Part shown: in pieces, positions 3,341 to 39,566 of the stretch
Layout of the letters: every line of letters starts with the position of its first letter
Position numbering within the stretch: position 1 is the first letter of the stretch
IMG/VR virus record: IMGVR_UViG_3300033562_000989
Coordinates: 14,399-78,398 of that record
Direction: 5' to 3' (one strand)
Source: a virus
Taxonomy: Duplodnaviria > Caudoviricetes
Length of the DNA stretch: 64,000 nt
The notes under the pieces: model-generated
Told to the model about the DNA's origin: nothing
The model's input: only the letters and a program-made list of their open reading frames with translations
The model's database searches: none
Made by a program: the position numbers and the translations under genes

Positions 3341-3355
3341 TACAAAATAAGTATA

Positions 3356-3931: not shown

Positions 3932-4009
3932 AATTAAGTATTGGAGTAAAAGAAGTAATTAATCTTAATGGAATTATCGCTATTTCCCTCCAATATTTTT
4001 CACAAATAG

Positions 4010-4391: not shown

Positions 4392-4398
4392 AACAACC

Positions 4399-4435
4399 TT
4401 AAAGGGGAAGCGGAGGATTCTGTCTTCCCCTTTAA
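4399..4435 (+). terminator. Intrinsic terminator hairpin
   Basis: 12-bp stem ttaaaggggaag / cttcccctttaa directly after stop 4391, followed by T-rich sequence. Confidence 0.75.
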
Positions 4436-4473
4436 TGTTTATATTACTATATAAATTATAAAATAATAAAAAT

Positions 4474-14400: not shown

Positions 14401-17400
14401 CAGAAGAAGAATTAAATAGACCTATTAAAGTAGAAGGACGAGAAGATACTACTATTAAACAAACTATTAGTAATCTTATAGAAAGTATTTTAGTAAAAAG
14501 CCCAAGTACTTCATTTGTATACGATTTAATAGAAAAAGATGCTAATAAAGAAATATTTGATTATAATAATAGTGTTTTATCAGAAATTGAGCATTTAAAA
14601 ACTACTAGAAACGAAGAAAATACAGAAGAAATTGATAAAGAAATAGCATTATTAGAAAATAGTCAAATGAACATTAAGCTATTAACTTATAATGATACTG
14701 ATATTTATAAAGGACTTAAAAGTAGTTTAGATAAAACCTTAACTGATAAATTCGCGGAATTAAAATTAACTGATGAAGATTTAATAGCTCTAAACTCTGT
14801 TACAAATTTAGAAGAAGTAGAGGCTATTAAATTAGAATCTGAAGATATATTAGATGAAAATACAGGAATTACTACAACAGAGTTAAATAAAGAGTCAGCA
14901 ACATCCATGTTTAAATGGATAGAGTTAGATAAATTACGTGACAAAGATGGTAAATCAATATTGGAAGAAATTTACAATGTTTATTTATTAGATCCAACTA
15001 AAGAAAACTTATCAAAATTACAAAGTAATCTAGAAGATACAGTAAAAGAATTGCAAGGAAAAAATAAGATATATAAACAATTTAAAGAGTTTCAATTAAA
15101 AGAAGAGGATAACTTATCTAAAGAATTAGAAAAATCAATGCCTTCATATTTTAGTCCTAAAGGAAATAATTATGCTTTGCCGGCACTTCTAAAAGAAATA
15201 AAAACTAATGGAAACTTAGATAAAGAAGTTTTCAAACTATTAGAAAGTTCTATAGATGATTTACTTCAGCCTATTAAAAATATGTTCTCAGACAATAATT
15301 TTACTAAATTAGAGTTATTAGATATTTTAGAAAATAGTGATGATTATTTTAATACTTTAAACGATGTATTGAATAGTGAGACTGTAGAAAATGATAGTAA
15401 TGCTGCAGAATGAGAACTAACGGCTAGTAAACTACCTAAATATATAAAAGAATCTATTAAATCAAATATAGGAAGTAAAACTACATTTGAAAGTGCTATT
15501 GATTTTCTTGAAAATATACAAACAATATCAGAATTTAAAAAAAATAATAAAGAAGATGTTAATAATATAAAAGAAGTATCTAAAGTATTAGAAGATGCAG
15601 ATAAATTTATTTCTAATAGTTTATACGATTTTATTGAAAATTTTGAAGTAATTTTGACAGGTCAAAAAGATAAATCAGACAGAAAAAGTAGTATAATGAC
15701 AATTCTTAAAAACGAAGAATTTTCTCTTTTTAAGGCTTCTGACATCACTAATTATTCTGCTCAGGGGATACGTTCAAAAGATATTGATCAGGTCTTAAAT
15801 ACTCTTAATTTGATAAAATCAGTAGTTAAAAGTATGAGTACTACAGAAATTTCTATGGATAGTTCAACTAATGGTTTTTTAGCTATGCGTCAAAATTTTA
15901 TTGAAAGGAATAAATTAAAATCTGATGTATCATCTTTAAAAACAATTACAAGCGATACTGCTAATATGATGTTATTGGATCTAGCTAGAATTGAAAGTAA
16001 ATTAAAATACTTACAAGAATTATCTAAATTTAATTCTGGCAAATTATTTAATGAGTCAGAAGAAATCAGAAATAGAGCTAGTCAACTTTTTCATAAAGGA
16101 TGAGTTGAATTATCTAAGAAATCATTAATGTTTAAAGGAAAACCTGTTATACCAGATCTATCTAATATACTAAGTTCAAATGATTCTAAAGAAAAACAAT
16201 TATTAAATATTAAAGATGTGTTTTTTCATCATCATATAGGTTTAAATGATGATGAAAAAATAGAATTATTAAAAATTATTAAAGAAGGATACCCACATTA
16301 TAATATATATGATGGCTTATACGATAAGAATGGGGAAGATGAGTTCACTAAAGAAATGAAAGAGTTAAGTAATCATGACTTTTTCTGATCTCTAGCTTCG
16401 TCTTTAGTAGTAAATAGTAAAGATATTTACAGAAAAATTTTAAGTAATTTAAAAGGAGAATTTGATAAAGCTCCATTTTATACACAAGAATTAGCTGCAG
16501 AAATGTTATATGCTTCTATTGTAGCTCCTAAAATATTTAGTGAGTTATTAAAAGATGATATTCATACTAGTACTCATTTAACTGATTTTATAACTTTTGT
16601 GCTTGGAAATGCAGGTACAGGAAAAACTACAGTAGAGTATAAATTACTTATGCTTATGTTAAAAGAAAATAATCCTAATTTATCTGTCTGATTTAATGCT
16701 CCTACAACTTCACAAGCTGAAAAGCTGATGAACGATGTTATTACTGGATTAGATATTGATAAATTTACTATAAATACTTTAGACAAATCTGCTTTATTTG
16801 AAAGGTTGGGTTTAACTGAATTATGAAATAAAATAAAAAGTTATAATAGAACTGACGAAGGATTTATTAAATATGACAAAAACATAGATAAATATGTTTT
16901 ATCTTCAATAGAAGATGATCTTAAAGCTATTAAATTAACAGATTTGCCTAATTTAATTTTAATAGATGAAACTACACATTATAATGCTTTAGAGTTAGAA
17001 CTTTTAAATAGTTTATCTAAACATTTATATAATAATGGTAAATATATGAAAATAGTTTCAGCAGGAGATCCTACTCAAAGAGGGGCTAAATTTAATGATA
17101 TAAGTTATAATGTAGATAGAGTTACCGCATTTTATACTCCTATTTTAAATTTAACTGTAAGAGCTTCTAATGACAAAAAAAGAGAAAATAATGATAGTTT
17201 ATCAGCAATAGTTAAAAAAGCAACTAGTATATTTGAAAATGTAAAAGATTCTCCAAAAATATTAAGTTTATTAGATAAAGGAGTGAATTTTAAGTATTAT
17301 TTTGATGCCCAGACAATTAATGGGGATATGTTAACTAATACAGAAGAAATTCAAAGTAGTATTGTAACTACTTTAAAAAATATAATAATTAAAAAACCTA

Positions 17401-20400
17401 CTACTAAAATAGGAATACTTTCAAAAGATGGTAAATTGTCTGAAGATTTAACTAAAAAATTTGAAGTTGCTGGTATAACCTCTACTAATTATGTAGTTTA
17501 TACTCCAGAAAATGTACAAGGTTCAGAATCAGATTATTTTATTTTTAATATTAATGATACATCTGATACCCATGTTATGTCTGCATTAAGAAATTTATAT
17601 ACTTATATGTCAAGAGCTAAACATGGTAGTATTATTTTAGGAAATTCTAAAACTGCTAAAAATAAGGCAGATGATACAGTAATTCCAATTATTAGTACAA
17701 AAGAAGATTATACTGAACCCTTCGAAGCAATGTCTCCAGATATTATTAAAGAAATAAAATTAAGTAAAATAACACAATTAGAAGAATTACTTGATGGAGA
17801 ATTTGATACAAAGTATGATAATTTCAAATTTGACAAGGATAAAGAAGCTAAAATTAGCATTATTGAAGGAGAATCTAGTATAGAAATAGAAGAAGAAGAG
17901 TTAGCAGAGGATGAACAATTTAAAGGGAAACAAAAACCTGAAAAAGGTAAATTTTTACCAGACGAATCTAAACTAATGCTTCATACTTTTTATAATGATT
18001 TAAATGTAAAAATTGAAGATTTAGGTAATGGTAATGTTAAGATTTTTAAAAATATAGACAATTCTTTAAATACAGGACTTGGATTTCTTTTTGAAGAAGG
18101 TGAAAATGAACTAACAATTACTAAAGAAGAATTTGATAAAATAGCTACTCAATTAATAACATTAAAATATAAAGTATTAGGAGATTTAAAAAATAAGAAA
18201 TTAACATCTTCTATATTAATGACCCATGATAAACTTTTTAATGGAGCAAACAAAATTGAGAAAAACATTATCATAAGAAAAACTAAATTTAATGAAGTAT
18301 ATAATAAGCCATATAAAAAAGAATTAGATGATGAGGATAAACATCTAAAATTTAATGATGCATATCCGAATTTATATTTAAAAGTTACAACTAAAAATAA
18401 AACATATTATTTACATTTAGGAACGTTGCCGGCTTTAGAAACTGTTAAAAGTTCATTCGGACCATATAGTGAAACTAATAAATATTATGAAGAATATTTA
18501 AAAGATAGTATAGATGAAGATATAATTATTCCAGATGAAAAAGTAGGGTTCTTTACGAACACTAGACTTTTATATCATAAAGATGATAAAGGTAATAGAA
18601 TTAAAATACAAAATATAAATTCTAAAGAATTAAAAGATTTAAGTAATAAAGGAACATCTTTAGAAAATCTTTTAGAAAAATTTCCAGGATTGACTTTTTT
18701 TGATGGTAAAAATTTTTCAAGTGAACCTACTATTAAATTATATCCAAATACTTTAAAAGAATATATCCAGATTTTTAAAAATGTAGTATTTAATGGAGAA
18801 GTACAAACAGATGAAGTTCTAGAAGCTAGATTTAGGTTGGATAGTGGTAAGCCTTATGTAAGTGTATCTTATGTTCAAAGTAAAAATCAAGTAAGACATA
18901 TAAAATTAATATCTTCTAATAAAAAAATATCTCAATTAAAAGAATTATTTAGAAATCCATTTAATAGAGAAAATTCTGAAAACTTAAGTAAAATTATTAA
19001 AAGTTCTGCAGCAGAAAAACCAATTGCCCTAAAAATAGGAGAAAGTATGTTTAGTGGCTCTCAAGTATTAGATATGCTAATAAATTTAGCTGTTGATAAA
19101 CCAGAATTATTTAAACAATTTTTTAATAAAGGAGAAGAATTTTTAAAAGTTATAAAAGAAACTTTAGAAAAAGATAAAAGTAATAAAACAGACAATGTAG
19201 GAAATTTATTTGAAACTTTATTTAATGAAGATGATTTTACTAAATATAAAAAAGATTTAATAGCAACTATTTTTTATGAGCCAGAAGATGGTAAATTAAG
19301 AGAAGTTTTATCTAATATACGAGAAGAATTAGATAAAAATGCAGATATAGATAAAGAAAAATTAAGAGCAAAGTTGCTACCTAAAGTATCAGGAGGATCT
19401 AATAAATATTGATTTCACAAATTTTGAAATATTATAAGAGTTGCAGTAGAATCTGAAACTGTAATTCTAAAAGACACTCTTTTATTAGAAAAAACAAAAT
19501 CTTTCTCTAAAATTGTTAATGATATGGTAAATTATTGAGGAGAAAATCCAGGAATTTTTTACTATAATTTACCTATAACTGTAGCTACAAAAGGAACTTC
19601 TAATATAAAGCCTTTTGATTTATTTACCAATAAGGAAAACCTTTATACTACTTTAGTGCCAGAAGGTCCAAGAATGTTCTTAGATTTAAAAGAAATATTT
19701 AAAGCTGCAAAAAAGAAAAGTTTACCTCCAACACCTCCAGAAGAAACTGCAGAAGAAACCGCTTTAAGAGAAATGAATGAGAAAAAAGAAAATCTGTCTA
19801 ATGAAATTGTAAATAATGCTACTACTGATCAAGTATATGAATTAGGCTTTACAGGTGAAATTGGAGATAATAGAATTAATTTTAAAACTTGATTATTAGA
19901 GCAATCTGTAGAAACTTTAGAAAAATTCCTAGAAACATTAAATGAAGAAGGGGAAGAAGAAGTAGAAGAAATTGACTTAGAAAAAAATAAAAAAAGAGTT
20001 TCATTTATTTTTAATAATTTCATATTAGAAGATGATGTTAATGGAGGAAAAGCACATCACTCCACTATGTCTAAATTATTTAAAGACAATTCTAGGTTAG
20101 CTTTAAAAATTTTAGAGAATTTAGACCAAGAATTTAAATTGCCTACTATATTATTACCTGGAATGAATGATACTTTAGATAAGCTTGTTGAAAATTTAGG
20201 CACAGAAGAAATACCGATGTATGATATATTAGAACAACTAGGAGAATTATTTAGTAGCGAATATGATATTGAAATAGATAATGATGATTCTGCTGCTGAA
20301 TTGACTTCAATATTTAAAGAATTATTTCCAGAAGAAGAAGTAACTAACTCTCATTTTACAGAATGTGCCGTAGTAAACAATGAGGTAATAGATAACAGCC

Positions 20401-20411
20401 CTCCATTTTAA
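11442..20411 (+). CDS. Giant ejection-type protein with SF1 helicase-like domain, 2989 aa, TGA=Trp
   Basis: Frame 3 is continuous with TGA read-through. Motifs: Walker A GNAGTGKT (16605-16628), LILIDETT, AGDPTQ, VQGSESDY, YTYMSRAK. Confidence 0.8.
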
Positions 20412-20437
20412 TTATAAATAATAAAAAAACAACCAAT

Positions 20438-23400
20438 ATGAGTAATTGCGATATAAATAAGCAAAAACAAATAATAAATACACTGACTATAATGCTTCCT
20501 AAAAATGAATCGACTTTGCTAGAAATAGCAAAGTCGATTTATCCAGGAAAATATAGTTCATTAGAATTACTAAATGAATTTAAAGATAGTAAATATTTTA
20601 CTAAATTAAATAGTTTTTACAATTTTGCTAATATTTCTACAACTTCTCCTAATATATTAATAATAGCTCCTAAAGCTAAAGATACTAAATTAGAAGAAAA
20701 ATATATGACTAATATAGCTACTAATTTTACTTCTCCTACTTTAGGTGACTTATTTGATAGTATGCCATTAGCTGAAAAATATTTTGAACAAAGTATGAAT
20801 GAAAAGCTTTTAAAAGCTGTATTAATAGGTAAACAATCAAGTGACGTGTATGTTACTTCAAAAGCTGATTTAAATAAAAATGTATTAATTTTAAAAAATG
20901 AGTTATTTAATAATATAGTAAAGTTTTTAAGAGTTAGAGGTATTTCTATTGAAGGTTCAACGGATTTATATAATATATCTTCTGGAAAATTTGTAAACTT
21001 TGAGAAATATTCGGAGGTATTAAAAAAATTAGAGACATGGTTTAAAGAAAATAGAACTATGATAGACACTGCTACACAAAGAGAGATACCTTCTTTAAGT
21101 GTTAATTTATCAAGTAATGCTGATAGGACAGTTTTAGATGCTTATAATGCTGCTATAATGCTTTCTAATTTTGACAATGTGATTTTTAAAAAATTTAAAA
21201 ATATACTTAAGTTAGATTTTTCTACTTTTAATGAGTTTGATGGCCCTTTAAAAGGGAATAAATATGAATTTGGAACTAAGGGTTTAGAGACAACTTACTG
21301 GTTAGGAGATGACCAACAATCAGAATCTGCTGAAGTTTTTTTAGATGATTATTCAAAAAGTATTATAGGATTAGTAAGAGTAGTAGATAAAAATAATAAT
21401 TTTACTGGTGAATATTTAGAAGCGAAAGATTTTTATAGTTTAGCTTCATTTATAAATACTTTTGAATTAGAAAATTTTACAGAATTAAATAAAGATGAAG
21501 AATGGCTATCTTTAAATGAAGATCCTGTAGGAACTTTTAAAGTATATCTAAAAAGAATTCTTGAAAATTATGAAAATCACTTTAAAGAGGGAATTTTAGA
21601 AAATAATACAGTAGAATCACAAAAATATGCAGTATTTAAATCTTCTATAAATAAAATTAAAAGTATAAGTGAATTTTTAGAAGAAATTAAAGTTAAAGAA
21701 GCTAATTCTAATGTGCAGCCAATTATTTCAGTATTTACTCAAGTATTAAATAACAGTTTTGGGGCTAATTATTTAGTAAATAATAGCAATACACAGGAAA
21801 CAGAAATAAAAGAAATGCATTCACATAATGCTAATAGAGTTAAATTATTTAATGATTTATATGCATTTCTAAAAGCCAGAGTGAAAAATCCTAAAAACTT
21901 TTATATTGGAGGTACTTCAGAAACAAAACCTAATTTAACTACAGAAAAAGACTTTTTAAATAAACTAGTAAATAATGATGATGTATCAGATTTAAGATTT
22001 TTTATTCATAAAATTACAGGTAAATTTTTAACAGAAGATGGAGTTGAAAGATTAAAAGCTATAAAAGGAAATAAACAAAATAATGGAGAAATGAATTATG
22101 GGTCTCTAGTAGATGATTTACATAGTTATTTAAAAGCTGTCAGATCTCCAATTGAAACAGGAGGTCAATCTGTTTTACAAAAAATTATAGCAAATGAAGA
22201 TAGTGTTTTAAATAATGAGTATAGTGCAGTAGAAAGTAATGCTAACATTATTGAAAATGCTTCTAAAAGTTTACAAACTATTTTCGATATCTACTTAGAA
22301 GATTTTGTTTTAAAACCAATAACAACTATTTCTACTTTATCTGGGGAAAAAATACCTGTATGAAAAACTCCTAATGTAATGTACAATGATGTAGAAAATT
22401 TATTAACACGTAGTAGAGTAGAAAAATCAAAAGAACATGACGACAATGCTTATGAAAATTTATTTGTAAAATATGGTGGTTTAAAAGGGACTTCAACAAA
22501 ATTAGAAGTCATAAATAGAAGTAATAATAAAGCTTCTAGTGCATACAATGTTGCAGAACATTTTATAAGTAGTTTTCAATATGAATTTTTAAATAGTTTT
22601 GATGCTAAAAAAAATATTGATATTGATGGTAGAATACATGTAATGATTGGTAATTATGCAGATAAATCTACTATTGTTGCTAAAATGATAGATAGGCATT
22701 TAAAAGTTAAAATAGACGAAAAAGATAAATTTATAATAGGGCATAACGAAGGAAAAAATGTAGCTACTCAAGCAGAGTTACAAGAATTAGTTAGAAGTCA
22801 AAGTGCTAAATATTATACAGGTTTAGTAAACACAATTTTTGATAAATATAAAGAAATTGGAGTTACAATAATAGATGGAGATATAATTGGCAATATTAAT
22901 AAAATCAATGAATTTTTAGGAATTTTTCAAGATCAAGATGAATTTTTAGTTTTTTTACAAAAACATAATGTAGATATAGTTGAAGAATTAGACTATTCTA
23001 CATATTTAACTTTTAATAATAAAACTAATAAATATGATAAAAGATTAGCATTAAATCAAACAATCGTTGATTACAGTAAAATATACGGATCTAAAGAAGA
23101 ATTTAATAAGTTTGTAAACTTCCAAGAAGATAATTTTGCTGAAAAATTAGAACTATTAAAAGGAAAAAATATTCTAATTGGGTCTGATGGAACTAATGGA
23201 GGTAATTTTGAAAAAATTAGAAATAATTATGAAAATTATTTAAATTCTTTTGGAATTACTGCTAAAGAAATGAAAAATTTTGAACTTCATAATGAAGATA
23301 AAGAATTAGTAGGATTAAAAATTGTAAATGAAGAAGGTGAATTAAATCCATTAGCTAAAAGATGGATGTGGAGTAATGCTTTAATTAGAAATGAATATTT

Positions 23401-26400
23401 ATATATTACAGTGAAACCTGAGTACATGCACCCTCATAAAATGAAACTTAATTTTAGAGGAGATAATGTAGCTGTAGATTATAATCAATTTGAATTAGAA
23501 AGTAGTGGTAGGCTTATCATGCAAGCTAAGCGTAATGTATCTTATACTGGTACAATAGAAAGGCCTAAAAGAAATGATAGGTTAGGAGTTACAGATAATG
23601 TAAATGTATCTATAATAAAAGATTTAAAAACTGATCTTTATAATTTATCAGGAGATACACATAATCAAGAAATTCATGATGGATCTAGCAAAATAAATTA
23701 TTTATACAGTAAAATGGTTGATAATTCGTATCCTGGTAAGAATTATGAAGGCACTAAGAAACAATTAGGTACATTTTCTAATGAATACGGGAGTGCTTTG
23801 AAAAAAGATGCTGAAACAGTATTAGATAATAAAAGTATGCTTTCTAGTAATAAATCTTCTGTAAAATTAAAAAATTTACATAAAAAAATGTTATCTAGTA
23901 GTACTATAAAATTTCCTACATTATCAACTAGTTTATCTTTAAACAATACATTTCTTAGAAATGGAGAGTACATTAGAATAAATAAAATAAGCATATCAGG
24001 AACAAATGTTGCATTAGAAACTTCTACAGTAGATCCAATTACTAAAAAAACTATTAAAAATGTTGGGATTGAAAATTATGAAGGAATAGATAATTTATAT
24101 AAATTATGGGAATTATTAGGAGCAGAATATTCAGTTGATGAAAATTTGAACTTTTCTGAAGGATCAAATGACTTACTATTTAATTTAATAACTCATAAAT
24201 CTTTAGATATAAATGATGTTAAAATGTTAAAATCTTCTATGATACATATAGCATCTAATGCATCTGCATTTAAATCTGGAGCTATAAATTTAAATCCTAG
24301 TACAGTATATACTGACAATAATAAGTTAAAATATACAACATTTGAAAACAGGCACATGGGTCCTCAATTAGATGCTAAGCATCATGCAGATGCTTCAAAA
24401 GTTAAAGAAATTACACAGTTGATTTCAGCATTATCTCAAAATCCAACAACTGCTTATATTGCTGAAGAAATTTATAATGATTTAGCTAGAATAATTGAAG
24501 TAAGTTCATCAAAATATTTAGACAATATTAAAGACCTTACTCCAACAAAAAGACAAGCTTTTTATAAACAATTATCACAACAATTTTCTAAAGCACTAGC
24601 AACTAGTAATGAAACAAATTTAGCTTCTATTATATCATCTACTTTTAAATTTGACGATGTTTTACCTATTAGTAATCAAAATTTCTTTAACCAATTTGTA
24701 AAGACAATGGTTACTAAAATGAATAACGAATTTATTACAAGATATTATACAGGATTAGGAGTTGTATTAAATCCATCACATGGTATAATACAAGTATATG
24801 AAGATGTTAATGGTAATATATATCAACAGGAAGATATTCTTAAAAAAGCCATAATTGATCATAGAAATAATCCAAATAAGCTAAATAAATCTAATGAGCA
24901 AATATTAGAAGATTACATACAAGAAAATTTTAAATCACTCCCAACAACTTGAGATAAAATTAAACTTGGAGATACTGTTTTAGTATCAGAAGAAGTTGAA
25001 GATTATGATCCATTAGACCATAGTTTAATTGCTGATGATATTAATATTAAAGAAAATACTAAAGCTTGAAGAGATGATTCTACAAAAATTAATAAAACTT
25101 ATGAATTTAGTTTTGTTGATAAACCAAAGGAAATATTTGAATTAGTTAAAGATTTAGAGGATGATTATTATTCTATTCATTTTAAAACATCTGGTAAAGA
25201 TAGTTTAACAAATATAGAAAAGGAAAGATTAATTGGAAATATTTATTCATTCTTACCACCTAAAGCTAAAATATCTACTTGAGGTGATATAACAAAAGGT
25301 GGTATATCTGGTTTAAAAAGATTTTTAAATACAGGAATGATTGAATCTGGAGAAACTAGAACAGTTAAGTCTGAAGGAAAATCTATTGAATTACCTATTT
25401 ATAAATTTCCAACTAAAATAGTAGAAAAACCAATTACATTATCCACTCCAGAACTTTATTATAAATATAAAAATTCTACTGCAACTGTATCTAAAATTTA
25501 TAGCAGTCCAAGAGATTTAAATCCTTCTGAAACTAGTTTTGATATTTTAGAAAACTATATTGATGAGAGTGGAGTTATAGTTCCTAAACAAATTACTAAA
25601 AATATGTTTGACTTAGATTCCATAAGGTTACGTTATATGTTTGAAATGGCAGAAGATCAAATTAGTCAAAAAGATGCTATAATTTTAAATAACTTTAAAA
25701 CATATCTTCAAAATACTTTTAATGTAAATCTTAATAACAAAAAAGCTATTTCTAAGTATTTAACAGCTTGAACTAATAGAAACCTTCAATTAATGGATAA
25801 TAATTTTATATTACCAACTGTTAATGAAAATACTGTTTTTAATGATTACTTTGGAAATGATGATTTACTTAGAACTAACTTTAAAGATGTAAAAGCATTT
25901 TATACACAAAAAGCTACTCCTATTTTAAATTATAGATTTAAACCAGCAGAAATAATAATGCCTAATATTCATAAAACAGCTTTTGATGTAGGAGATTCTA
26001 CTATAAGTGAAATAAAAGAATTAGGATCTAGTTATTTTAAAAATAAGCTAGAGAAAAATCTTTATTCACATAAGGATGATAGAGAAGTAGATTTTAAAAT
26101 AAAAGTAGGAAAAAAAGATGTTTATATTAAATTTGTTAGTGAATTTCCTAGCAAAATAGAAAATAATAACATATTTGATAATGAATATAATGAAAAAACA
26201 GATACTTTTATAAAGTATCGTTTAAGTGATACTGGTGAAAGACTGTATATAAAACCACCTAATTCAAAAATATTAGTAGATAGTTCAGGAAATGATACTA
26301 TTTATATAAAAGTAGCTAAAGTAAGTCGTGGAATAGATAAAAATGGTGAAAATACTAATGAAAGAGTTAATTTATATGATCAATCTCTTTCAATTAATCT

Positions 26401-29400
26401 TAAAGATAATATAAAAGCATTAATTAAATCATTTAATGGTGAAATAGACGCGATAATACCTTTAATGAATAATCAAACTTTAAAATTAAAAAAATTAATT
26501 ATAAAAAATGGTATTAAAATGCAAGTTCCTAAAAATTTGGATTATATAGCTTATAATACTTTTGTAAACTTTACCTCTTATAAAGGAAAAGCAGCTTTTG
26601 ATGAAAAATTAGATAGTGATTGATTTGAAACTAATAAAGAACAGATTTTAAATCAATTAGCTAATAAAAAGTATTCTTCTTGGTTAAAACATCATCAAGT
26701 AGTAACTGCTCGTATACCTGCTCAATCTATGCAATCTTTTATGGAAATGTATAATATTGGATATCTTAAAACAAATAATAATGATGCTTATGTATCTATA
26801 TGGCAAATATGGTTGCAAGGATCTAAAACAAAAATTATTAAAATTTAAAATACAAAATTTCAACTTTAAATATATTTTTACCTTATAAACAAAAATATAT
26901 TTAAAATCATATTTTTTATTACGACCAATTTATTATCTTTGTATAATAATTAAAATAATAAAAAATGGCAACAAAATTAGAAGAAAAATTACAAATTATT
27001 GAGTTGAATAAACAAGGTTTAACCAATAAGCAAATTAGTGTAGAAATGCACAAATCTCCAACAACAATTCGAAAAGTATTAAATGAGTATAACTTAGAAT
27101 TTAATAGTGATAGAATTAAGATGATAAATAAAAAAGAAATAACTTATAATGCTGAACAAATAGAAGTATTATTGGGATCTTTATTAGGAGATATGTGCTT
27201 AACAAAAGAAACGGTTAATGCAAGATGTGCAATATCACATGGAGGAAATCAAGAGTTATATTTTGATCATAAATGTTCATTATTTCCAAATTTATTAGGA
27301 AAAATATGTAAAACTCCACGATATGATAAACGGACTGAAAAATACTATAATAAGTATTCTGTAAGAATGTTAGCACATCCTAACTTAACTGCTTTATACA
27401 ACGAATTATATATAAACGGAGTTAAAACAATAACTGTAAATTATTTAAATAAATTAACAGAAAGAAGTTTAGCTTATTGGTTTATGGATGATGGTGCAAA
27501 ACACGGAGTATTAGCTACAATGTGTTTTTCTGATTCAGAATTACAATTAATTCAAGAATTGTTTTTAAATAAATTCAATATAAGAACTAGAATTAATAAC
27601 CAAAAATGTATATGTATTGTTGTAGATGATCTATTGCAATTTGAAAAACTAATTTTTCCTTATTTGATACCAGAAATGTATTATAAATTACATAAATTGG
27701 ATCCAAATTCCGTGAACTGCGGGAAACTCCTTAGAGATTCAAATACTAACTCATAATGGTAACATATATGAGGGCGTTGCTAACTACAACGATATAGTAA
27801 AAAGTTTGAATATTGGACAATCCGCAACCAAGCCACCTATATAGGTGGAAGGCTCAACGACTAGTAAGACCTACGAATGGTAGGCGTAGGACTCAAGCGA
27901 GTCCGAAGTGCGGAACATTGTAATTTTACAATGATGATATAGTCTCGACTTATGAGAAATCATAAGAGTTATAATAAAAGCGATTATAACGTAAGATACG
28001 GATTTTGATATTGATAAAGCTTATGCAATGGCTTATGGGTTTAATAAAGATGGTCAATATGATATTTGAAGTCCTCTTTCTAATTACTCTAATGTAGAAC
28101 AATTAGAAGCTCTTGAAAATTTACCTGTTCCTAGTGGTAATATAGTAGAATTAAATGAAGGAGGTATTGGTACAGATCTTACAAACAATTTTATTAAATT
28201 TTTAGAATACGTTAAAACTAATAATATAATTAATATAGAAGATGCTACAAAAGATATGCCTCCAGATATATTAAATATGTTTGCTGACTCCTTAAGAAAA
28301 ATAAATAACTCTAATCAATTTGATAAAGTTTTTATAGGAATTACAGGAGAATCTGGTTTAGGTAATGAAGAAGAAATAATAGATACTAAAAATTTATTTA
28401 TATCTTTATTAAATTTACATAATGGAGATGAAAGTTATAAAAAGAAAGGTAATAGTATTAAAAATTCGGTAGTTTCTAAAATTAGAAAAATTATATCTTC
28501 TCCTAGTAATCAGATTTTAGCTAATACTCCTGTTAATATTAATCCTTTACATGATGGAGCTGCTAAAGCTCTTGAAATGAAATTAAAAAGAATAGAAGAA
28601 GGATTTAATTTAACTGAATCAGAAGGAACAGGATTTAAGGATTTTAATCAAAAAAAGATTATAGAGTATTTAGAACATTTAACTAATGAAAAAATTATTG
28701 GTAAAGATTATAAAGAATTTAAAAATTTAAAAGGAAAAGATTTAGCTTTAAAAATAAAAGAAATATTATTAAATAGATCTCGAAGAAAAGTTTTAATTTC
28801 AAGTTTTGATATGCTCTCTATGTTTAAACAGCAAGAAGATGCTAGTATAGGTAAGGCTGATGTTGGTATTGGAGCTAATGGCTTAAAAGTATTTTTTGCA
28901 TTAAGTAGTTATTATAATAATTGGTATGATTCAATAGATAGTGCAGAAGAATTAAATAAAACAGATTTCTTTACCAATAATAAAAGCTTTAGAAAAAAGT
29001 TTACAGTTAATGGTGAAACTAGATTAATTCATACACTTGCTAATGTTGGAATAAATAATGAGCAGTTAACTAAAATTTTAAATACCTATGGTTACGATGA
29101 ATTAAGTAGGCAACAATCAGCTTTAAGTACAAATCAAGCTGCTATTTCAATGTCAGCATTTGTTTCAGGAGCAACTGATAACGCTAAAGAACTTGTAATG
29201 GCTAAAATTAATGCTGTAGTAGAACTTGCAGGGATGCATTTATATATGTTTTCTTTAGGGTATAATGAAGATGAAGTAGCAATTTTTATGAACTCAAAAT
29301 TAGGATTATATATTAGTAAAAATCTTAAAACTAGTATGTATGATAATTTAGACAGAATTTATATATCTGATTTAATACAAAAGTATAAAGAAACAATCGT

Positions 29401-31237
29401 AGATGAAGTTGAATTATTAGAAGCTGATACTTTCAAAGATATATATAATGGGGCTCAAGAGTTTAAAATACTAGCTTCTATATTAGGTGTAAATCAAAAA
29501 ACTTCTGCTAATACCATAGAATTAAATAAATTTTTAACTAAATTAGAGAATGCTATGTATATGCAAGAAGATAAAGTTTTAAAGTATGATTTAGGTAAAT
29601 TAAAGTCTCCTGAAAAATGGGATGAAGTAATTAAAGGTTTACATGCCGGAAATAGTGATATAGATTTAAGTATTATTCAAAAAGTAATAGAAGAAAATTC
29701 ATTGTTAAAATTAAAATATGACAAAGGAGGAGAATATGCAACAGAAGTTATTAAGTATGTAAAAGATACTTTAGAAGCTGCTATGGATATTAAAATTAAT
29801 TACTTAGATGAAAATGGAGATATTAAAACTAAAACTGTAGATATAGTTGGAGGGGGATTTGATTTTAGATATTATATGTTTAGTAGCAATTATTCTTATA
29901 GAAAGGCCGCTGCAAACTACTATAATTTATTTAAAAACACAATAAATATCTTTGATTCCATAAATAATATGCCTCATTTTAAGGCTATGATTGATGGAGT
30001 AAATATAATACATGAGACCCTTTCTGTTATAAGTAAAAAGTATAACTTTGCATTTAATTATTCCAGAGATATTATTAAAAAATATGAAGCTGAATTATTA
30101 AAATCAAATAAAGATAATATTAAAAATAGATTTGGTAATAAAAATTTTGGAATAAAACAAGACGAAAAAGTTTTAGGAAGGCTATTTACATTTTATGATA
30201 AATTGGTAGTATTTTCTTGGCTAACTAATTTAAAAACTCCAAAGAAAAATGATTTAACAGTTATTCCTAAAGATATCAGTTTAAATATAACAGAATTATT
30301 AAGACAACATAATAAAATAAATGGGATAACACCTATAAATACTATAACTTTAGACACAAGTAATAAAGCTAAGATTTATTCTCGCAATGATGCTAGTTTA
30401 ATACGAAATTTATCTTTAAATAAAGACCAAAGAGAAATATCTGTTAATGATGATGAAGACTTTATTTTAGATATTAATTCTGATTATAATATAGCTAATT
30501 TTAAAATAGTTATGGAAGAATTGATTTATCCTATTTTATCAGCTTCAAAAAATTCTTCATTAGGGTCTAAATATCTTAATTTAGGGTCTGTTAGAAATTT
30601 ATATGGAAATTTTACTACTCAAATACTATCAACTTATCAATTAAATAGTTTGAATACTCCAGAAAGCGTACAGAAATTTTCTGAATTAACTTCTAATTTT
30701 AATGAAGTAGATCGTGTTATAGAGCCTGAATTAAAAATAAAGAATAATAAAGGCAAAGTTGTAGGTTATCAAGATTTACTTTATCTTTATAATTTAATAG
30801 TAAATAATGAATCTTATGGAGATAAAAGATTAACACCAATATTTGAAGATTATATTAAAAAACCAAATACTTTAGGGCAAGATTATTTAAATTATAGTAC
30901 TTTAGTAGATACTAAACAAGTAAATGTACTAGCTCCATGAGAGGACGTAGATAATATGGAAGGATTAGATGAAGAACAATCTAAAAATTTAAAAAATAAT
31001 TTAAAAATTGGATTAGAAGTAGCTATGTTACATAGTGCATTTCATGTACAAGGAGCTTTAGATATGGGTACTATTAATGATAAACTAATGAAAGTTGTAT
31101 TAAAAAATAGCAACTATGTTATAAATACTGAAATGGATTTAAATGATAATACTTCTACAGTTAAGTTTAACTTATTTAAAGCTATCCTCTCTAATATTAA
31201 TAATAAAAATCTAATAATAAACTTTAGGTGTGATTAA
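20438..31237 (+). CDS. Virion RNA polymerase (crAss-like two-barrel RNAP); exons 20438-26824 and 28001-31237; 3207 aa, TGA=Trp
   Basis: Splicing restores ARIPAQSMQSF...WLQGS|DFDIDK (catalytic DxDxD). Also KEITQLISAL, TGLGVVLNPSHG, KADVGIGANGLK and GATDNAKEL. Confidence 0.9.
26934..26941 (+). promoter_or_regulatory. -7 promoter element inside the intron, upstream of the endonuclease
   Basis: TATCTTTG 23 nt before ATG 26965; lies in a 15-mer identical to 3328-3342. Confidence 0.5.
26965..27756 (+). CDS. Intron-encoded LAGLIDADG homing endonuclease (LAGLIDADG_2-like) with N-terminal HTH
   Basis: LLGSLLGDMCL and SLAYWFMDDG motifs; no internal TGA. Confidence 0.88.
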   Translation: MATKLEEKLQIIELNKQGLTNKQISVEMHKSPTTIRKVLNEYNLEFNSDRIKMINKKEITYNAEQIEVLLGSLLGDMCLTKETVNARCAISHGGNQELYFDHKCSLFPNLLGKICKTPRYDKRTEKYYNKYSVRMLAHPNLTALYNELYINGVKTITVNYLNKLTERSLAYWFMDDGAKHGVLATMCFSDSELQLIQELFLNKFNIRTRINNQKCICIVVDDLLQFEKLIFPYLIPEMYYKLHKLDPNSVNCGKLLRDSNTNS

Positions 31238-31272
31238 ATACTTAAATCATATAAAAAAACATAAATATAAAA

Positions 31273-34200
31273 ATGGCTTGTAATTACTTTATAAAATTAC
31301 CAAATGGCGGAGAAATAAAACTCTCCGCCAATTTGGATATATTAACAGATAAAAAAGATAAAACTGCTATCAATTTAATACAGAAAGATATTAAAAGATA
31401 CTTAGATTTTAAAAAAATATATACAGAAAGCTCTATTAATGATGAAAAATTAAATAATTTAGAAAATTTAATTATTACAGATATTAAAAAATCTTATGGA
31501 TTTTTAAACAACGATGATATTAAGTCTATTATAAATAGAGATGATGTAAATGTTGGAAATATAATAGAAATTTTAAATAAATTAGTTAATGGAGATGAAG
31601 GAATGAATAATATGAAAGATTTTACTTCAATATTAAAATCTACTATTTTTAAAGAAGGAGATGTTGAAGTATTTTATAAATCTAAGAAAAAAGATTCTTT
31701 ATTTGAAAAAATTAATTTAACAACTTTTTATGAAAAAATAAGTAAACCAATTCATACGGAATATTTTAATAATATAAAAGGAGATGGACTTTTAAAAATA
31801 CAAACTCAAAATCAGGTTCATGCAGAACTTTTAAGAGAAATAAATTTTAATAAACATATGAATATAGAATATTCTGCAATAAACTCCTTAATAAACATTT
31901 TAAATAATCTCACAGATAAAAATACTAAGTTTTATAATATATACTTTAATGATCAAAAAGATGGGGAAGATGCAGTTGTTATAAAAGATGGTAATACGGA
32001 TATGATTTTTTATAATGGAGATAATGTTATTTCTTTATTAAATGGAGTTTTTAAATTAGGAGCTTCTAAGGTAAATATAGATCAATTAATTCCTATTTTA
32101 GTAGAATATAATAACAAACTTACTGAAGGAAGTAAAAATAAAATTAATTTAGAAGGCCTTACTTCTGAAAATTTCTTTAAAGGAGATTTTGAAGAAGATA
32201 ACTTTATAGAACCACAATTCAATAAAATATTTAAAACAAATGCATATAAAGAATTTTTACCTCGTATTATAGAATTAGTTTCAGTTTCTAATGATTTAGC
32301 AGAAGCTACTCAAGAAAAGCTCAAAAAATCATTAACTTCTTTATTTTCTTTTATAAATATTTCTAAAATGAATAATAAAGATTCTATCGAATTTAGAAAA
32401 TATAAAGAAGAAAATGAGAAGAATAATAAAATTTATACTGATCTTACAGGTAAAATTTATAAAAAAATCTTAGAAGCTAAAGATTTTTATTTTAATAGAA
32501 GAGAAGTTATAAATAAACCTAGTATAGCTGAAATATATGAGGAAATAAAAGCTAATATACTTTTAAATAGAGATATGATAAAAGTAGAAACAAAACTTCT
32601 TAAAGGAGAAAGAACCCAATATACGTCTTTTTATATAATACCTACTAAAATAGCCTATGGAGATAATACAGTGTTCGTAGAAGGTATTAAAATAGATAAA
32701 AATGGAGATATAATTAAAGCAACTGGGTATATTGTAGATAATAACTTAACTTTTAGAAAATATCAGCCAACAAATGAAATTATTAATACAAAAGATGCTG
32801 AAATGATTCCGGCTGAAGAATCTATAAACCTATTACCAAAAGAAAATGAACTTTATTTAAACAGATTAATTGTTACTAAAGCAGCTAAAAGAGGTAATTA
32901 TGTAAAATATATAGATAATAAAGGAAAGGAAAGAAAGGGAATTATAGCTTTTATTACTCCTGGAAAAATAGTTCTTAATTTAACTGGAAAACCTGGTAGC
33001 CTATTTAATCCGGAGTTACCAATAGATACGGTAACATCAATGACTATTGATAAAGCAACATTTGTAAATGAATTTTCAGAAGATTCTTTTACAGATGCAA
33101 ATTTAGAAGAGAAACAAGATATTTTAAAAAATGAGTTTGAAATTATTAATAACAAGGATAAAAAAACACCTTCTATTGTTGAGGGAGATATTATAATAGT
33201 CAAAGATAAAAAAGGAAGAAGTTTATATAATGAAGTAATAGATTCAACAATTAATAAAGTTTATATACTTATTAAAAATAATTCTGGTAAATATTGAATT
33301 GAAGAAAAAGATAAAAGTGATGCTATAACTGTATATAGAAAAAAGAATAGCTTTAATTATGAATATAATACTGCTGTTGATATAGCTAATTTTAAAAGAG
33401 ACTTTATTAAAAGCCCTAGTAATATATCTAAATATGAATATTCAATACTGGACAATTGATCTGAAATAGGAGATGGAGATTATTTAATCTCTAAAAAAAG
33501 TGGAGAAGATATAGTTTATAAAGTATTTAATAAAAAAAGTAATGAAGTAGTTAGATTAACTTTAAATGGTTCTAAAGGAATTTCTCATGAATACTCAAAT
33601 TTAGGAGATTTTAATTCCTCTGATTATATTCTTGTAACTTCTAGAAATATTTCTACTGTGTCTTCGATAAATATAGCAGAAATTAATAATAAGAAAATTT
33701 TAATAAACTCTACTGAAAATTTAGTAGGCAGAGATGATGTCTTAATTTTAACAGATTACACTGTTTATAATGATAATGAAAATGACAATGTTTTATTGCC
33801 ATCAGGTAATTACGTAGGAGGGCATACTAAATGAGGATCTCAACCATTAAATAGTAACGAAAAAAGTAAACTAAAAGAATTAAAAATAGCCTTAAAAGAA
33901 TCTAATAAAAAACCAGAAAAAATAGATGATTTAAGTTTATATTTAGAAATAATTAAGGGAAAAGATGGTAATAAAGAGTATCATAGAAGATACAATGAAT
34001 CTTTATATAAAGCTGATTTAGAAAAATTTCCTAATAATAGACAAGAAAAATTAAATTTATTAGGAAAGGAATCATTTGTAAGAGTTAAAACTTTAGAAAA
34101 TCAACAAAATCCCACTACTTTTAAAGTTATAGAGAAAATGGGAGATATTTTAAAGTTAGAATATAGTACTTTTTCTAAAAGTGGTAAAATTGTTTCGGTA

Positions 34201-34947
34201 TTTGCTACAATAGATTTGAGTAAAAATTCTGATGATATACTAGATTTTTGAGTAAGAAAAGGTACTGATAAACAAAAAAAATTAGAAAAACTTAATAAAA
34301 CAGATATTACTACTGTAGAAGTTAAAAAAGAAAGGCAACTTGAAAGAATAGAATTGATTAATAATGTTAAAAAAGTATTTAATGAAAAGGTGTTTGGAAT
34401 AACAATAGAGGATAGAAATGATAAAGACAGAAAAGATAAAAAAGCTTGGATTGAAACAGATACAAAAACTAATGAAACTAAAATAATATTAAATACAGCT
34501 ACTACTAAAACTACAAGTACTGATGTTTTACATGAATATTTACATTTATTTTTGATTGCTTTAAAATATAATAGTCCATCTGATTATGAACAATTACTGA
34601 CTAGTAAAATAACACAAACTAAGAATCAAACTATGCATAATATAGAAGAAATTTTTATAGACTTAGTGATAAATGCTTTAAAAGATGATAATTTAGAAAA
34701 ACTAGATAGTTTTGTAGATTTTTCTGATTTAATAAACAAAGCCTTAAAATCATTAGATATAAATACTAATTTTATAGACGGTTTGAGTAGTTTAGATATA
34801 TTAAATAAAAAAATGTTAGAAGTATTTGAAAATCTTAGTGGAGAAGTTAGTAAAACAGATAAAGGTCTTATTATTTTTGAATCTAGTTTTAGAAATTGAT
34901 TAGATGAACAGATAAAAGATAATAAACTAAAAATTATATGTAAATAA
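31273..34947 (+). CDS. Large ejection-type protein with zincin HExxH motif, 1224 aa, TGA=Trp
   Basis: Frame 1 from ATG 31273 to TAA 34945-34947 with only TGA interruptions; VLHEYLHLF at 34525-34551. Confidence 0.8.
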
Positions 34948-34958
34948 TAAAATGATAA

Positions 34959-37900
34959 ATGGCAAATTGTAATTATAAAATAAAAACAGTACAAGGAGAA
35001 AAAAGTACTTTTAGTTTAGAAGAATTAACTCAATTTTACTACAAAAGTAATAACCAACTTACAAATGGCAGCATATTCAGTTCTGAAGAAATAATAGAAA
35101 GCACTGAAAATATAATAAATAAATTACTGAATAATACAGATAACATTAGAAAAAATGATGATTTAAAATCTACTTATGAATTTAGTGGAGAAAAAAATGA
35201 AAAAATGTTTTCTAATTTAGGTATAAATAAGGAGAGATTAAATCCAGAATACGATAAAGAATCTAGAATTATAAATACTATTTTAAATAATTTAGTTGGT
35301 AATGGTATAAGTATTACTGGAATAGAAAAAGCTTTATCTGTATCAGAAATAGTAAATTGGTCTAAATATAGTGAAGATGTTAATAATAAAGTTTTTAAAT
35401 ACAAAAAAGATATAGAAGAAGTTATTTTATTAGAAGAAAAAACTAAAGAATTAGGAAATTCTATACATAGAATTTTAGCTAGATTAATAACTAATAAAGG
35501 GGAATTTTCTTCTTCTATAGAAAATGAATTATTAAAAGAATTAGAAAATAACAAAGATATTTTAGAAGGAGATTTAGATAACTGGGTTAAGCTTTTTGAA
35601 AAACAACTTACAAGAATTTATGAAAATTTATCTAAACAAGGTAAAATACTTAGTGAAGTAGTAGTTGGATCTGAAAAAAATGCTCCTGCCCAAATTAAAG
35701 GAGCTTTAGATATAATAGTTATAAGTCCTGATGGTGCAATACATATCTATGATTTAAAATTATCTAAAAATAAATATGAAGATTGAGACTCTGCTAAAAA
35801 GTTAACTACAGATAATCAATTAGCTCTTTATAGAGCATTAATGGGTCAATATGTAAAAATTAATAATTCTACTATGAGTGTTATTCCTATTGAATTAGGA
35901 ACAATGTTAAATGGCAAATTAAATATAGATTCTGTAAAATTAGGTAATATTGAAATTAGAAGTGGTGAAAGTGCCCTTCAATATAAAAGTGGGTCTATAT
36001 ATACACTAGTTAAAAAACTTATTCCAGAAAAAGTACACATTAGCCATGATCCAGAAAGAAGAATTAAATTTGAAACACATTTAAAACACATTCTTCCTAT
36101 AGATTATGAAATAAGAACTTCAAATAAGAAAAATGATGTAGAAGCTATGGTAGATAAAGCTATGAGAACACAATCATATTCTATATCTAATGAATACGGT
36201 AAAGAATTTGAAGGAGAAACTAGAGTTAAGGATTATGATAAAAAATCAAAAGAAGAAATTAGAGCAGAATTAACTGTTATAATTCAAAAATATATTGAAT
36301 TTGAAGAATCAATTAAAAATAGAAATTTAGTATCTCTTAAAAATCAAATAATAACTAGTATAACTGGAGGAAAACCTGTAGATGTTAAAGATCCTGATCA
36401 AAATATATTATTAGCAAATACATTAAAAGATTATATAACAGGAGAGTATGAAGTTATTGATAACATAGAAGAATTAGATAGTTTTGGGTTTATTTTATTA
36501 CAAAATAAAAGAACTTCTAAGTTTGTTCTTTTAAGTATTACATCTCATAATAAATATGCATCAATAGGAAAATCTAATATGTTATATGAAGAAGCTGAAT
36601 ATTTAAAATCTTTATTATTATTTAATAATTTTAAAGAAGATTTAGATTTAAATAGTACTGGAATAGAAGATATAGTTATTTTAAATTTAGAAGGAAAACA
36701 AGTTGGTAGTAAAACAGTAGATTTTTATTGGGAAAGTTTTAGAAACTTATTAAATAATAAGTCTGTGCCTTATACTTTAGAAAGAAATAAACCTAAACTT
36801 ATACAAACAGCTAGTAATATTTTAAGACAAAATTTAAGAGAAGCTCCAGAAAAAGAAAAAGAAGCCTTAATTAATATTATTGGTAATGAATATACTAGAT
36901 TTGAAGATATAGAAATAGAGAAATTAAAAGAAATTTTAAAATCTATGGCTCAAACTTACCCAGAATTAGTTTCAAATTTATTTACTTCTCCTAAATTAAA
37001 CTTTAAAAATAGAGAAGAGTATGTTTATGCTCTTTTAAATTGTCTTTTATTAAGAAAAACTAGGTTTAATATGTCTGGTGATTTTATGCACTTAAAAGAC
37101 TTTAGTATAGGATTTTCTGATATTAAAAGTTTATTAGCTTCTTTATATTCTGATAAACAAGAAGAATATGATGCAACGGCTAAAAAAATTATGGGATTAC
37201 CAGGAGGATTGAAAATGGTAACTCCGGATAGAGTAGGTTCTCAAGTATTACAAGATATTAATGGTATTATTACTTCAGGACACTCAAGTTATGCTCACAC
37301 TTATAATAAACAAGCAGTAATTTTTAATAGACTTACTACCAAGTTTGCTAAAGATATGAATTACTCTTCATTTGAACAGAATTTTGTTGGAGATCACCAA
37401 AATTTATTTAGAAATATGTGATTTTCTGAAAAAACTGGAAAAATTTCTAATGAGTGAAGGGTAAAAAATCCTTATAAATCAGATGTAGATAATGCTATGA
37501 GTGATACTGAAAGAGAATATTTAAAAAATATATTATCTCAAATTCGTAGACATACAGAAAAAATTACTGATGTAGATTTTAATAAAATAGATTTTAGTAC
37601 TTTAGAAACTATTAGAAATACGGATAAGACAGGTAAAATAATTAAATCTATAGAAGATGGAGATTATTTTTTAATGCCTTTAATTAGATCCCAACAAATA
37701 GATCGAAATAAAGATAGTATTAAAAGTTTAACAATTAGTGGATTAAAAGATCAAATTGTAGATAATTTAAATAATTTAATTGATACTAGAGAATTATCTT
37801 CTGATGACTTAAGAAATATTAAAACTGTACATGAAGGATTAACTGAAATGTATGATGTCTATGATAGAAGGAATAGAAATGCAAAATTTATAGCTGATAG

Positions 37901-39566
37901 TGTAGATGAAAGTGAAAGTTATTGAGAATTAGATTTAGATAGAATTGCTAATAAAGTAGCTTTTAGTAGTATAAGAAAACAGACAATGGATCATATTCTT
38001 CCAATTATCACTTCTGCAATATGGTACATGAAATTACAAGCTGGAAAAGATAATACTGATATAAGAAAAGAATTAGATTACATAGAAAAAAGACTTTCAT
38101 TATCAGTTATGGATGCTCCAATTGTTGCAGACGAAGCTAAAGATATAATATTAACAACTTCTATGGTTAAAAGATTTACTACTGCATTTATGTTAGGTTT
38201 AAGACCAGTACTAACAGCAAAAGAATTTGCAATTGGTTTGTATAAAGGAATATCTCTAGCTGCTACTAAAATTTATGGAAAAAATCAATTTAGTTTAGCA
38301 GATTATACCAAAGCAATGAAAGCATTAATGACTATAGATAATCAGTATACACAAGAATTTAATATGATTGATAAAATTAATCATCATTATAGATTTGCTA
38401 ATATGGATGTTAATGCTATGCCTGAAAAACTTAAAACATTTAGAAGAGGTGCCATGTTAGGATTAGGTCCTTGAATGTATTCTACTAGTACATTTGCAGA
38501 TTACAGTAATAGGCTGTCTTTATTCATAGCTAAAATGTACAATGATGGATCTTATGATGCGCATATTTTAGTAAATGGAGAGCTTATATATGATCCTACA
38601 AAAGATAAAAGATTTGAGTACTATTTTCAAAATAGGGATAAGTATATAAATCAAAAAAATGGAGAATATATGGAAAGTAGTACTGATTTGAAATTTAATA
38701 CTCAAAGAAATGTATATCTATTGACAATGAGACAAATAAATGATGAAAATATACTTTTAGGTAAACAGGAACTTGTAGAAAAAGACTTAATAGAATATGC
38801 TTACTCTGAAAAAGAACGTCAAAGTTATAAATCATTTACTGATTCAGTGTATGGGTATTATGATAAAGATTCTCAGGCTGAATGGCATAGTACTTGGTAT
38901 GGATTAATATTTTTACAGTTTCTACAATTCTGACCTGGTAAAATGAATATGTGGTTTGGTAAACCAGATAGTAAACAAACTAACATAGGAGAAATGTTGC
39001 ATAAAACTATGATAAGCCCAACTACAGGAAAAAAAGTACCAGCTTTCATTGAGGTAGTTAGAGATCCAGAGACAGGAGAGGTAATTGATACTATAGATGT
39101 TGAAGAGGATAATAGCAATCCTGCTATGGTTTGAACAGGAACTCCACAGGAAGGTTTGATTTATGCTATAGGATATACTATACAAGATGTTTTAAGAGGA
39201 AATTGAGATCATATAAAAGATATGGAACTTAGAAATAAACGTGTTATGTTTGCTATGTCTGATACTTTAATAATGATGTTAATTTTTGGAATGATAGGAG
39301 CTTTAATTGATGTTTTTGTAGATGAAAATGGGACAGAAGGGATAAATGGTAATACAGCTCAATTTATGCAAGAAGTTAATAAGAAAGTTCTTACTGAAAC
39401 TAATTTATGGAAAAATACACTAGGAGCTATTAAAACAGAGCCTGCCTTTTTCTCTTTTGGAACAAAAGTAGCTGGAGATATACAAGATGTCTTCACAGGA
39501 GATAAATCTATAGAAAAATTAATTTCTAAAAATATTAAAGCATTTGAACTTTGAGATACATTATAA
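34959..39566 (+). CDS. Large ejection-type protein with PD-(D/E)xK nuclease domain and C-terminal TM segment, 1535 aa, TGA=Trp
   Basis: Frame 3 to TAA 39564-39566. GALDIIVISPDGAIHIYDLK...QLALYR; hydrophobic VMFAMSDTLIMMLIFGMIGALIDVFV near the C-terminus. Confidence 0.8.

Follow-up and report, generated by a model that had tools for sequence, protein, structure and literature searches.

The subject of this analysis is a row of four very large genes in a 64,000-nucleotide stretch (the window) of the viral record IMGVR_UViG_3300033562_000989, a 78 kb fragment that is about 45% complete. The encoded proteins are a helicase-like protein, an RNA polymerase (RNAP), a zincin and a nuclease. They are nearly devoid of cysteine except where the end of one faces the start of the next, and we propose, with a probability of about 0.7, that they are joined C-terminus to next N-terminus as a disulfide-linked cargo chain. 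The proposal draws on sequence comparison and on an analogy with a cyanophage. Homology with the virion proteins of crAss001 and phi14:2 suggests that the four giants are cargo which a crAss-like phage would package and eject as a set. Each C-terminal tail would dock on the N-terminal tail of the next-encoded protein, and the single cysteines of the two sides would join in a disulfide between the molecules when the particle reaches non-reducing surroundings, by analogy with cyanopodophage A4. The product would be a covalent head-to-tail chain of helicase-like protein, RNAP, zincin and nuclease of about 1.02 MDa, equivalent in behaviour to the polyprotein that certain relatives make from one fused gene. 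Thiol reductants of the host cytoplasm would then cut the chain back into separate enzymes, and the tether may have a role in ordered or stoichiometric delivery.

The first link is a protein of 2989 residues (11442..20411, on the plus strand like the other three) with an SF1-helicase-like P-loop domain at residues ~1713–2070. Its sole cysteine is residue 2975 (TGT, nucleotides 20364–20366), 15 residues from the C-terminal end, and the N-terminus has none; in homologues from relatives the cysteine lies 1–9 residues from the C-terminal end. The second link, an RNAP of the virion type, is encoded in two exons (20438..26824 and 28001..31237). The spliced protein has 3207 residues, with the motif DFDID at residue 2130, and contains only Cys4 (TGC, nucleotides 20447–20449), which is the sole cysteine of exon 1, and the penultimate Cys3206 (nucleotides 31229–31231). 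The third link is a zincin protein of 1224 residues (31273..34947) with a C-terminal, gluzincin-like HExxH domain (HEYLH at residue 1087, nucleotides 34531–34545) that no Pfam model matches. Its only cysteines are Cys3 (nucleotide 31279) and the penultimate Cys1223 (nucleotide 34939), and in an alignment of 24 homologues the residues H, E, H, E and E of the zincin domain together with the terminal cysteine are the sole invariant columns. The last link, of 1535 residues (34959..39566), combines a PD-(D/E)XK nuclease domain (residues 161–298) with one hydrophobic segment (residues 1428–1456). It carries Cys4 (nucleotide 34968) and an internal Cys695 (nucleotide 37041) and lacks a C-terminal cysteine. 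In its N-terminal 250 residues Cys4 is the sole invariant column, and a tyrosine at Cys+2 is nearly invariant.

The four giants thus sum to 8,953 residues and 1,024 kDa with seven cysteines, six of which lie at the three gene junctions, where the intergenic gaps measure 26, 35 and 11 nucleotides. The probability of finding at least six of seven cysteines within the 72 junction-facing residues is 1.9e-12, which speaks against chance. Both outer ends of the series are without cysteine. Cysteine makes up 0.08% of the chain compared with 1.19% of 17 minus-strand open reading frames (ORFs) of the window, among which none has an N-terminal and one has a C-terminal cysteine. Upstream of the chain, proteins of 439, 1689 and 626 residues contain no cysteine in 2,754 residues, and the latter two are outside the cysteine chain. 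The original prediction, made without database searches, had counted these residues by hand. Translation with TGA read as tryptophan reproduces its count and positions exactly, and likewise the lack of cysteine in the 1689- and 626-residue proteins and at the outer ends. Its functional labels are upheld (an SF1-helicase-like P-loop, an RNAP by DFDID, a zincin by HExxH and a PD-(D/E)XK nuclease with one hydrophobic, putative transmembrane segment), and its length of 3207 residues for the RNAP is correct once a 1,176-nucleotide intervening sequence is removed.

Conservation of the terminal cysteines, on which the original prediction depended, was computed over 80 IMG/VR loci collected with an alignment of the C-terminal part of the RNAP and two GenBank gut-phage records. 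These were read under code 11, code 4 or TAG=Q and collapsed to 36 lineages (numbered with the prefix L) at less than 70% RNAP identity, with one representative each. Of 107 tight junctions in these lineages, 99 have cysteine on both sides, seven on neither and one on a single side. The seven junctions without cysteine involve the upstream cysteine-free cargo genes, a chain end, a homopolymer-split RNAP (L044) and L018. Where cysteine is present on both sides (n = 99), the N-terminal one is residue 3 (48 junctions), 4 (39), 5 (7) or 6 (5), and the C-terminal one is the last residue in 33 cases, the second-last in 44, the third-last in 11 and further in in 11, so that it falls within the last three residues at 88 of the 99. 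Tyrosine occupies Cys+2 at 43 of them. In none of the 36 lineages does the first chain protein have an N-terminal cysteine or the last protein a C-terminal one. Among 42 background ORFs of the same loci the counts are 0 for N-terminal cysteine, 5 for C-terminal cysteine and 0 for both. An independent sample was obtained by searching the N-terminal 275 residues of the last link against 1.84 billion representative proteins: all 41 last-protein representatives that include the N-terminus have a cysteine at residue 3–8, usually as C-x-Y, and it is mostly their sole cysteine. In L002 and L003 the chain is preceded by the same two cysteine-free genes as in the window, and their junctions are likewise without cysteine. 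On these alignments, the terminal-cysteine rule is general in crAss-like relatives.

The pattern follows the splitting and fusion of the genes. In L003 the helicase gene is split at a point that lies within the undivided protein of the window and L002, and cysteine is found at both new ends; the unsplit helicase-like proteins of the window and L002 have none in the region matching the split. L039 and L045 possess an extra link of 333 residues with cysteine at both termini, and L033, L067 and L075 have short zincin links of 299–360 residues, again with cysteine at both termini. The converse is seen in six lineages (L060, L065, L082, L083, L076/77 and L080), in which the zincin domain is fused to the C-terminus of the RNAP: none of them has a cysteine within 540 residues upstream of HExxH, and the L083 and L077 fusions have no internal cysteine at all. 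In p-crAssphage, gp44 is a fusion of the RNAP with the last subunit; its one remaining cysteine, Cys3, faces the penultimate cysteine of gp45. Loss of cysteine where neighbours are fused had been named as a check on the idea, and the six RNAP–zincin fusions and p-crAssphage gp44 agree with it.

These events bear on the topology. The middle proteins could instead close on themselves, N-terminus to C-terminus, or each terminal cysteine could homodimerise, with no chain in gene order. The numbers of N- and C-terminal cysteines balance under self-closure as well. We prefer the chain since, in it, every split or fusion that was observed alters only the pair at the junction concerned; self-closure or homodimerisation would require other cysteine pairs to be rewired at every such event. 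The gp44 protein of p-crAssphage has no C-terminal cysteine of its own, so that its sole available partner is the C-terminal cysteine of gp45, and homodimers leave unexplained why the outer ends of the first and last proteins are free of cysteine in 36 lineages. The one bond of this kind that has been seen, in phage A4, runs from an upstream C-terminus to a downstream N-terminus (PMC12002296). We regard pairing other than in gene order as quite improbable.

The spacing of the cysteines is silent on this point. Between cognate partners, the offset of the cysteine from the C-terminal end and the position of the next N-terminal cysteine are not correlated (rho -0.07), a lack of positional co-adaptation that leaves the chain unfavoured by this measure. 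The C-terminal and N-terminal offsets within the same protein are not correlated either (rho 0.01). The comparison cannot discriminate between the topologies, because neither kind of pair correlates. Complex prediction was applied to the zincin link and the N-terminus of the last protein of a standard-code relative, L075, and gave a score of 0.46 compared with 0.00 for the best control; at least 17% of contacts are shared between the runs, and the partner has a predicted local distance difference test value (pLDDT) of at least 54. Of 80 solved complexes, 58 reach the mark used, as do 2 of 110 mismatched pairs; these counts are rough since the alignments were custom-made. At scores of 0.60 or less, only seven of the 80 solved complexes reach it, and so do both of the mismatches that pass. 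The model lends weak support to docking of the two L075 termini.

Cultured crassviruses obey the same rule. In crAss001, gp47 has a C-terminal cysteine only, gp50 has one at both ends and gp49 has an N-terminal one only. In phi14:2, gp078, gp077 and gp076 together contain four cysteines in 5,398 residues, all at junction-facing ends; the middle protein, gp077, is the crystallised virion RNAP (PDB entry 6VR4). Mass spectrometry found gp47, gp50 and gp49 in crAss001 virions (PMC10172136), and GenBank notes list the three phi14:2 proteins as virion components by the same method. The crAss001 cargo must partly unfold for exit (PMC10172136). As in the window, the blocks gp078-gp077-gp076 (gp67-gp66-gp65 in the papers) of phi14:2 and gp47-gp50-gp49 of crAss001 follow muzzle and cargo genes, have a DFDxD RNAP as the middle protein and include an HExxH zincin domain. 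The differences are that the cultured phages have three links compared with four in the window, and that their zincin, as located by the position of the HExxH motif only, resides in another protein, the first giant in crAss001 and p-crAssphage and the last in phi14:2.

The gp47 gene of crAss001 lies on the strand opposite gp50 and gp49, yet its product obeys the rule, which shows that the pattern needs no adjacency of genes. A cause at the nucleotide level, such as a translational coupling or re-initiation motif that places TGT or TGC at gene boundaries, is thereby excluded, since the rule holds between genes on opposite strands. The genes are indeed tightly packed, with overlapping stop and start codons in many relatives. 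Against such a motif also stand the variable positions of the cysteines (3–6 residues from the start, 1–15 from the end) and the upstream cysteine-free cargo genes, which are equally tight and have junctions without cysteine. Taken with chance, this explanation has a practically negligible probability.

Sequence identity between the window giants and the crAss001 and phi14:2 proteins is near the detection limit. The DFDxD motif is common to the window RNAP, crAss001 gp50, phi14:2 gp077 (6VR4) and p-crAssphage gp44, and blastp aligns the window RNAP with crAss001 gp50 at E=0.001 only. Profile hidden Markov models (HMMs) built from the relatives' alignments matched no crAss001, phi14:2 or p-crAssphage protein at an independent E-value (iE) below 0.01. 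Orthology to the cultured-phage proteins is therefore argued from motif, gene order and size and one weak blastp match. In other searches, the 1224-residue protein gave no match in IMG/VR and GenBank phages, none of the window giants matched PHROGs, and phmmer against the PDB returned nothing for the window RNAP or the last protein.

The HExxH module is found in several places. In crAss001 and p-crAssphage it is the C-terminal end of the first giant, and in phi14:2 it belongs to the N-terminal part of the last. The window carries it in a separate protein (34255–34947), and six lineages carry it at the C-terminus of the RNAP. Where it is placed C-terminally, the module ends with the junction cysteine.

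The chemistry of the link is modelled on one experimental structure. In the cryo-electron microscopy (cryo-EM) structure of the pre-ejectosome of cyanopodophage A4, a disulfide joins gp27 (Cys1715) to gp26 (Cys5; PNAS 2025, PMC12002296), and the C-terminal helix of gp27 is inserted into gp26 (PMC12002296). In the A-4L genome, gp27 has 1717 residues with a single cysteine three residues from the end, and the next gene encodes gp26, of 1114 residues, with the single Cys5. As in the window, the two genes are adjacent, their products are large and otherwise poor in cysteine, and a cysteine in a C-terminal tail faces one at residue 3–6. A4 (Anabaena phage A-4L) belongs to the Saffermanviridae and is without an RNAP, and the resemblance to the crassvirus proteins is one of sequence signature. 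It has one link compared with a chain of two to five in crassviruses, and in the view of its authors the bond keeps a folded, pentameric assembly stable; they do not present it as a general rule or as part of a thread. By this analogy, the terminal-cysteine signature has one experimental reading, a disulfide.

The termini might also dock with their thiols sharing a metal ion or merely packing against each other, a non-covalent or metal-mediated link that the original prediction had allowed for. The pairing logic needs only that two cysteines meet, and assembly takes place in the reducing cytoplasm. A metal site would have to be built from one cysteine per side with no conserved His, Cys, Asp or Glu adjoining, the only conserved neighbour being the tyrosine at Cys+2, and in A4, where the signature is identical, cryo-EM shows a disulfide (PMC12002296). 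We consider this form of link unlikely. Of the earlier claim that the giants pair head to tail in gene order, the pairing is strongly supported by the cysteine pattern at 107 junctions, the gain at splits, the loss at fusions and the lack of cysteine at the intron split, and the A4 precedent supports it as well; the bond chemistry is carried over from A4, and ordered ejection as one thread with release in the reducing cytoplasm is a putative role. The accompanying statement that no description was known holds for crassviruses and fails for phages at large, a single such link having been published for A4 (PMC12002296). In the crassvirus papers searched we found no description of terminal-cysteine linkage of the cargo giants, and the terminal cysteines go unmentioned in the crAss001 structure paper (PMC10172136), the phi14:2 preprint (10.1101/2020.03.07.982082) and the epsilon-crAss paper. 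What appears to be new here, from the sequences, is that a link known singly from A4 recurs several times per chain and throughout an order of phages.

The terminal cysteines could attach the cargo to something else, such as the portal, a capsid auxiliary protein, the DNA end or a cofactor, or could be signals for packaging or processing. In favour of this, the crAss001 virion has many structural disulfides in its tail and capsid accessory proteins, some of them intermolecular (PMC10172136). Attachment elsewhere does not predict that cysteine is present or absent on both sides of a junction together, is lost at fusions, is gained at splits and is missing from the outer ends, and a processing site is difficult to reconcile with fused forms that have no internal cysteine (L083). 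We give these roles a small probability, below that of a metal-mediated link. Three further candidates were rejected: a lipobox or signal sequence (there is no signal peptide and the cysteine is at residue 3–6), an intein or autoprocessing site (where proteins are fused, the point of fusion lacks cysteine) and a zinc knuckle (each side has a single cysteine).

Several observations weigh against a disulfide-linked chain. Cysteine counts alone fit either a chain or self-closed middle proteins with the outer two paired. Particles are assembled in a reducing cytoplasm and live in an anaerobic gut, which makes it hard to say when and where the thiols would be oxidised. The cargo proteins of crAss001 are unresolved in the map (PMC10172136), and the published comparison of reduced and non-reduced crAss001 samples by mass spectrometry reports nothing on the cargo ends. 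Within our own data, the cysteine of the first window link, 15 residues from the end, is the furthest in of the whole data set; several relatives have extra internal cysteines; and L018 has an unpaired N-terminal cysteine after insertion of a cassette, the only one-sided junction of the data set.

The L018 cassette, of about 3.5 kb, is inside the gene that occupies the zincin slot (compare L018:12766-19409 with L016:12766-15858). Through it the locus gains 400 C-terminal residues, a new N-terminus starting MSC and a 631-residue protein that contains a YkuD L,D-transpeptidase domain. In L044 the RNAP is split into 1858 and 1304 residues at a T6A4 run (L044:8900-9000), with a 56-nucleotide gap and no cysteine on either side; from its sequence this split is probably a frameshift or assembly error and no true protein boundary. 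In L033 (L033:4461-8579, read with TAG=Q), the RNAP C-part is preceded by a protein that matches the zincin profile a second time and more weakly (iE 1.2e-6, residues 277–456).

The RNAP gene of the window is interrupted by an intervening sequence of 1,176 nucleotides (26825..28000, boundaries approximate), located by alignment to the intron-less RNAP of L004. Unspliced, the open frames under TGA=W are 20438–26848 and 28028–31237. The insert sits exactly at the catalytic DFDID motif, and its removal restores GS|DFDIDKAY, matching L004. It contains an ORF in the standard code (26965–27756, plus strand) for a LAGLIDADG homing endonuclease of 263 residues with eight cysteines (Pfam LAGLIDADG_2, PF03161, E=5.5e-33). 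On this evidence, a self-splicing intron is probable. An insert of about 1 kb at the identical RNAP site in many distant relatives, and its absence in others, suggests a homing intron. A search of 26000–29000 against Rfam gave no match at E<=1, whether to a group I ribozyme core or to another intron model. Neither side of the intron split in the RNAP carries cysteine, and this false gene boundary serves as an internal control.

The giant ORFs are continuous only when TGA is read as tryptophan; the two other codes compared, table 11 and TAG=Q, interrupt them. TAA ends all four. In alignments with standard-code relatives, in-frame TGA codons stand opposite Trp in 14 of 56 non-gap columns compared with 12 of 57 for TGG. 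The TGA=W reading of the plus-strand giants is, on these alignments, genuine recoding, because TGA matches Trp in the relatives as often as TGG does. The plus strand of 1–39566, which holds the structural and cargo block, requires this code, with up to 15 in-frame TGA codons per gene. On the minus strand of 39631–64000 nearly all ORFs are open under table 11. No tRNA, including suppressor tRNA, was found within the window. The clade of its relatives uses the standard code, TGA=W or TAG=Q.

A muzzle gene of crassvirus type lies directly upstream of the cargo genes of the window. The C-terminal part of its product is encoded at 2..1918 on the plus strand (Pfam crAss_MUZ E=8.6e-24 and crAss_MUZ_C E=5.1e-6; blastp to crAss001 gp44); this part carries five cysteines and is outside the cysteine chain. 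The cysteine-free proteins of 1689 (4474-9543) and 626 residues (9552-11432), both encoded on the plus strand, have no Pfam match and take the position of the crAss001 cargo proteins gp45 and gp46. Between the genes for the 439- and 1689-residue proteins, 1.2 kb (3241–4473) is without a long ORF; the sole frame there under code 4 has a TTG start and encodes 197 residues (3338–3931).

Two other systems help to place the four giants. The fused RNAP polyproteins, such as p-crAssphage gp44 (Drobysheva et al., 10.1101/2020.03.07.982082), contain the same domains in the same order in one polypeptide. Their parts are joined by a peptide bond with a presumed proteolytic cut; in the window each part has a gene to itself, and the link that we propose could be undone. 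Phage N4 (Schitoviridae), like the window, has a giant virion RNAP that is ejected with partners from one operon, and it shows extreme exclusion of cysteine: gp52, gp51 and the virion RNAP gp50 (3500 residues; EF056009 34523–47523) have none in 4,294 residues. N4 has no terminal cysteines, so no cysteine-based tether, and its RNAP is of an unrelated type (PMC13434306). From these compositions, ejected phage proteins may exclude cysteine in general, and the terminal cysteine pairs look like a specific addition on top of this.

A wider proposal, which we advance tentatively and at less than even odds, is that Crassvirales in general use a redox-cleavable, post-translational polyprotein. Two to six proteins, joined by single disulfides with uniform N-to-C polarity, would exit the tail as one unfolded thread in fixed order, and reductants would release active helicase, RNAP, peptidase and nuclease. 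If this is true, gene fusion, gene splitting and disulfide linking are interchangeable evolutionary routes to the same continuity.

Crassviruses are the most abundant phages of the human gut. How their narrow tail lets them deliver proteins of more than 0.7–1 MDa in all, among them the polymerase with which infection starts, is a stated open question (PMC10172136; PMC13434306), and a 2026 paper on N4 calls their ejection proteins structurally unresolved (PMC13434306). A conserved cysteine tether offers a concrete model of this delivery that is testable in cultured crAss001 and phi14:2. It would explain how cargo genes can be freely fused and split, why the cargo proteins are otherwise free of cysteine, and how their order and 1:1 stoichiometry could be guaranteed. 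In metagenomic phage genomes, the terminal-cysteine rule provides a simple sequence marker for sets of ejected cargo and separates true protein boundaries from introns and frameshifts.

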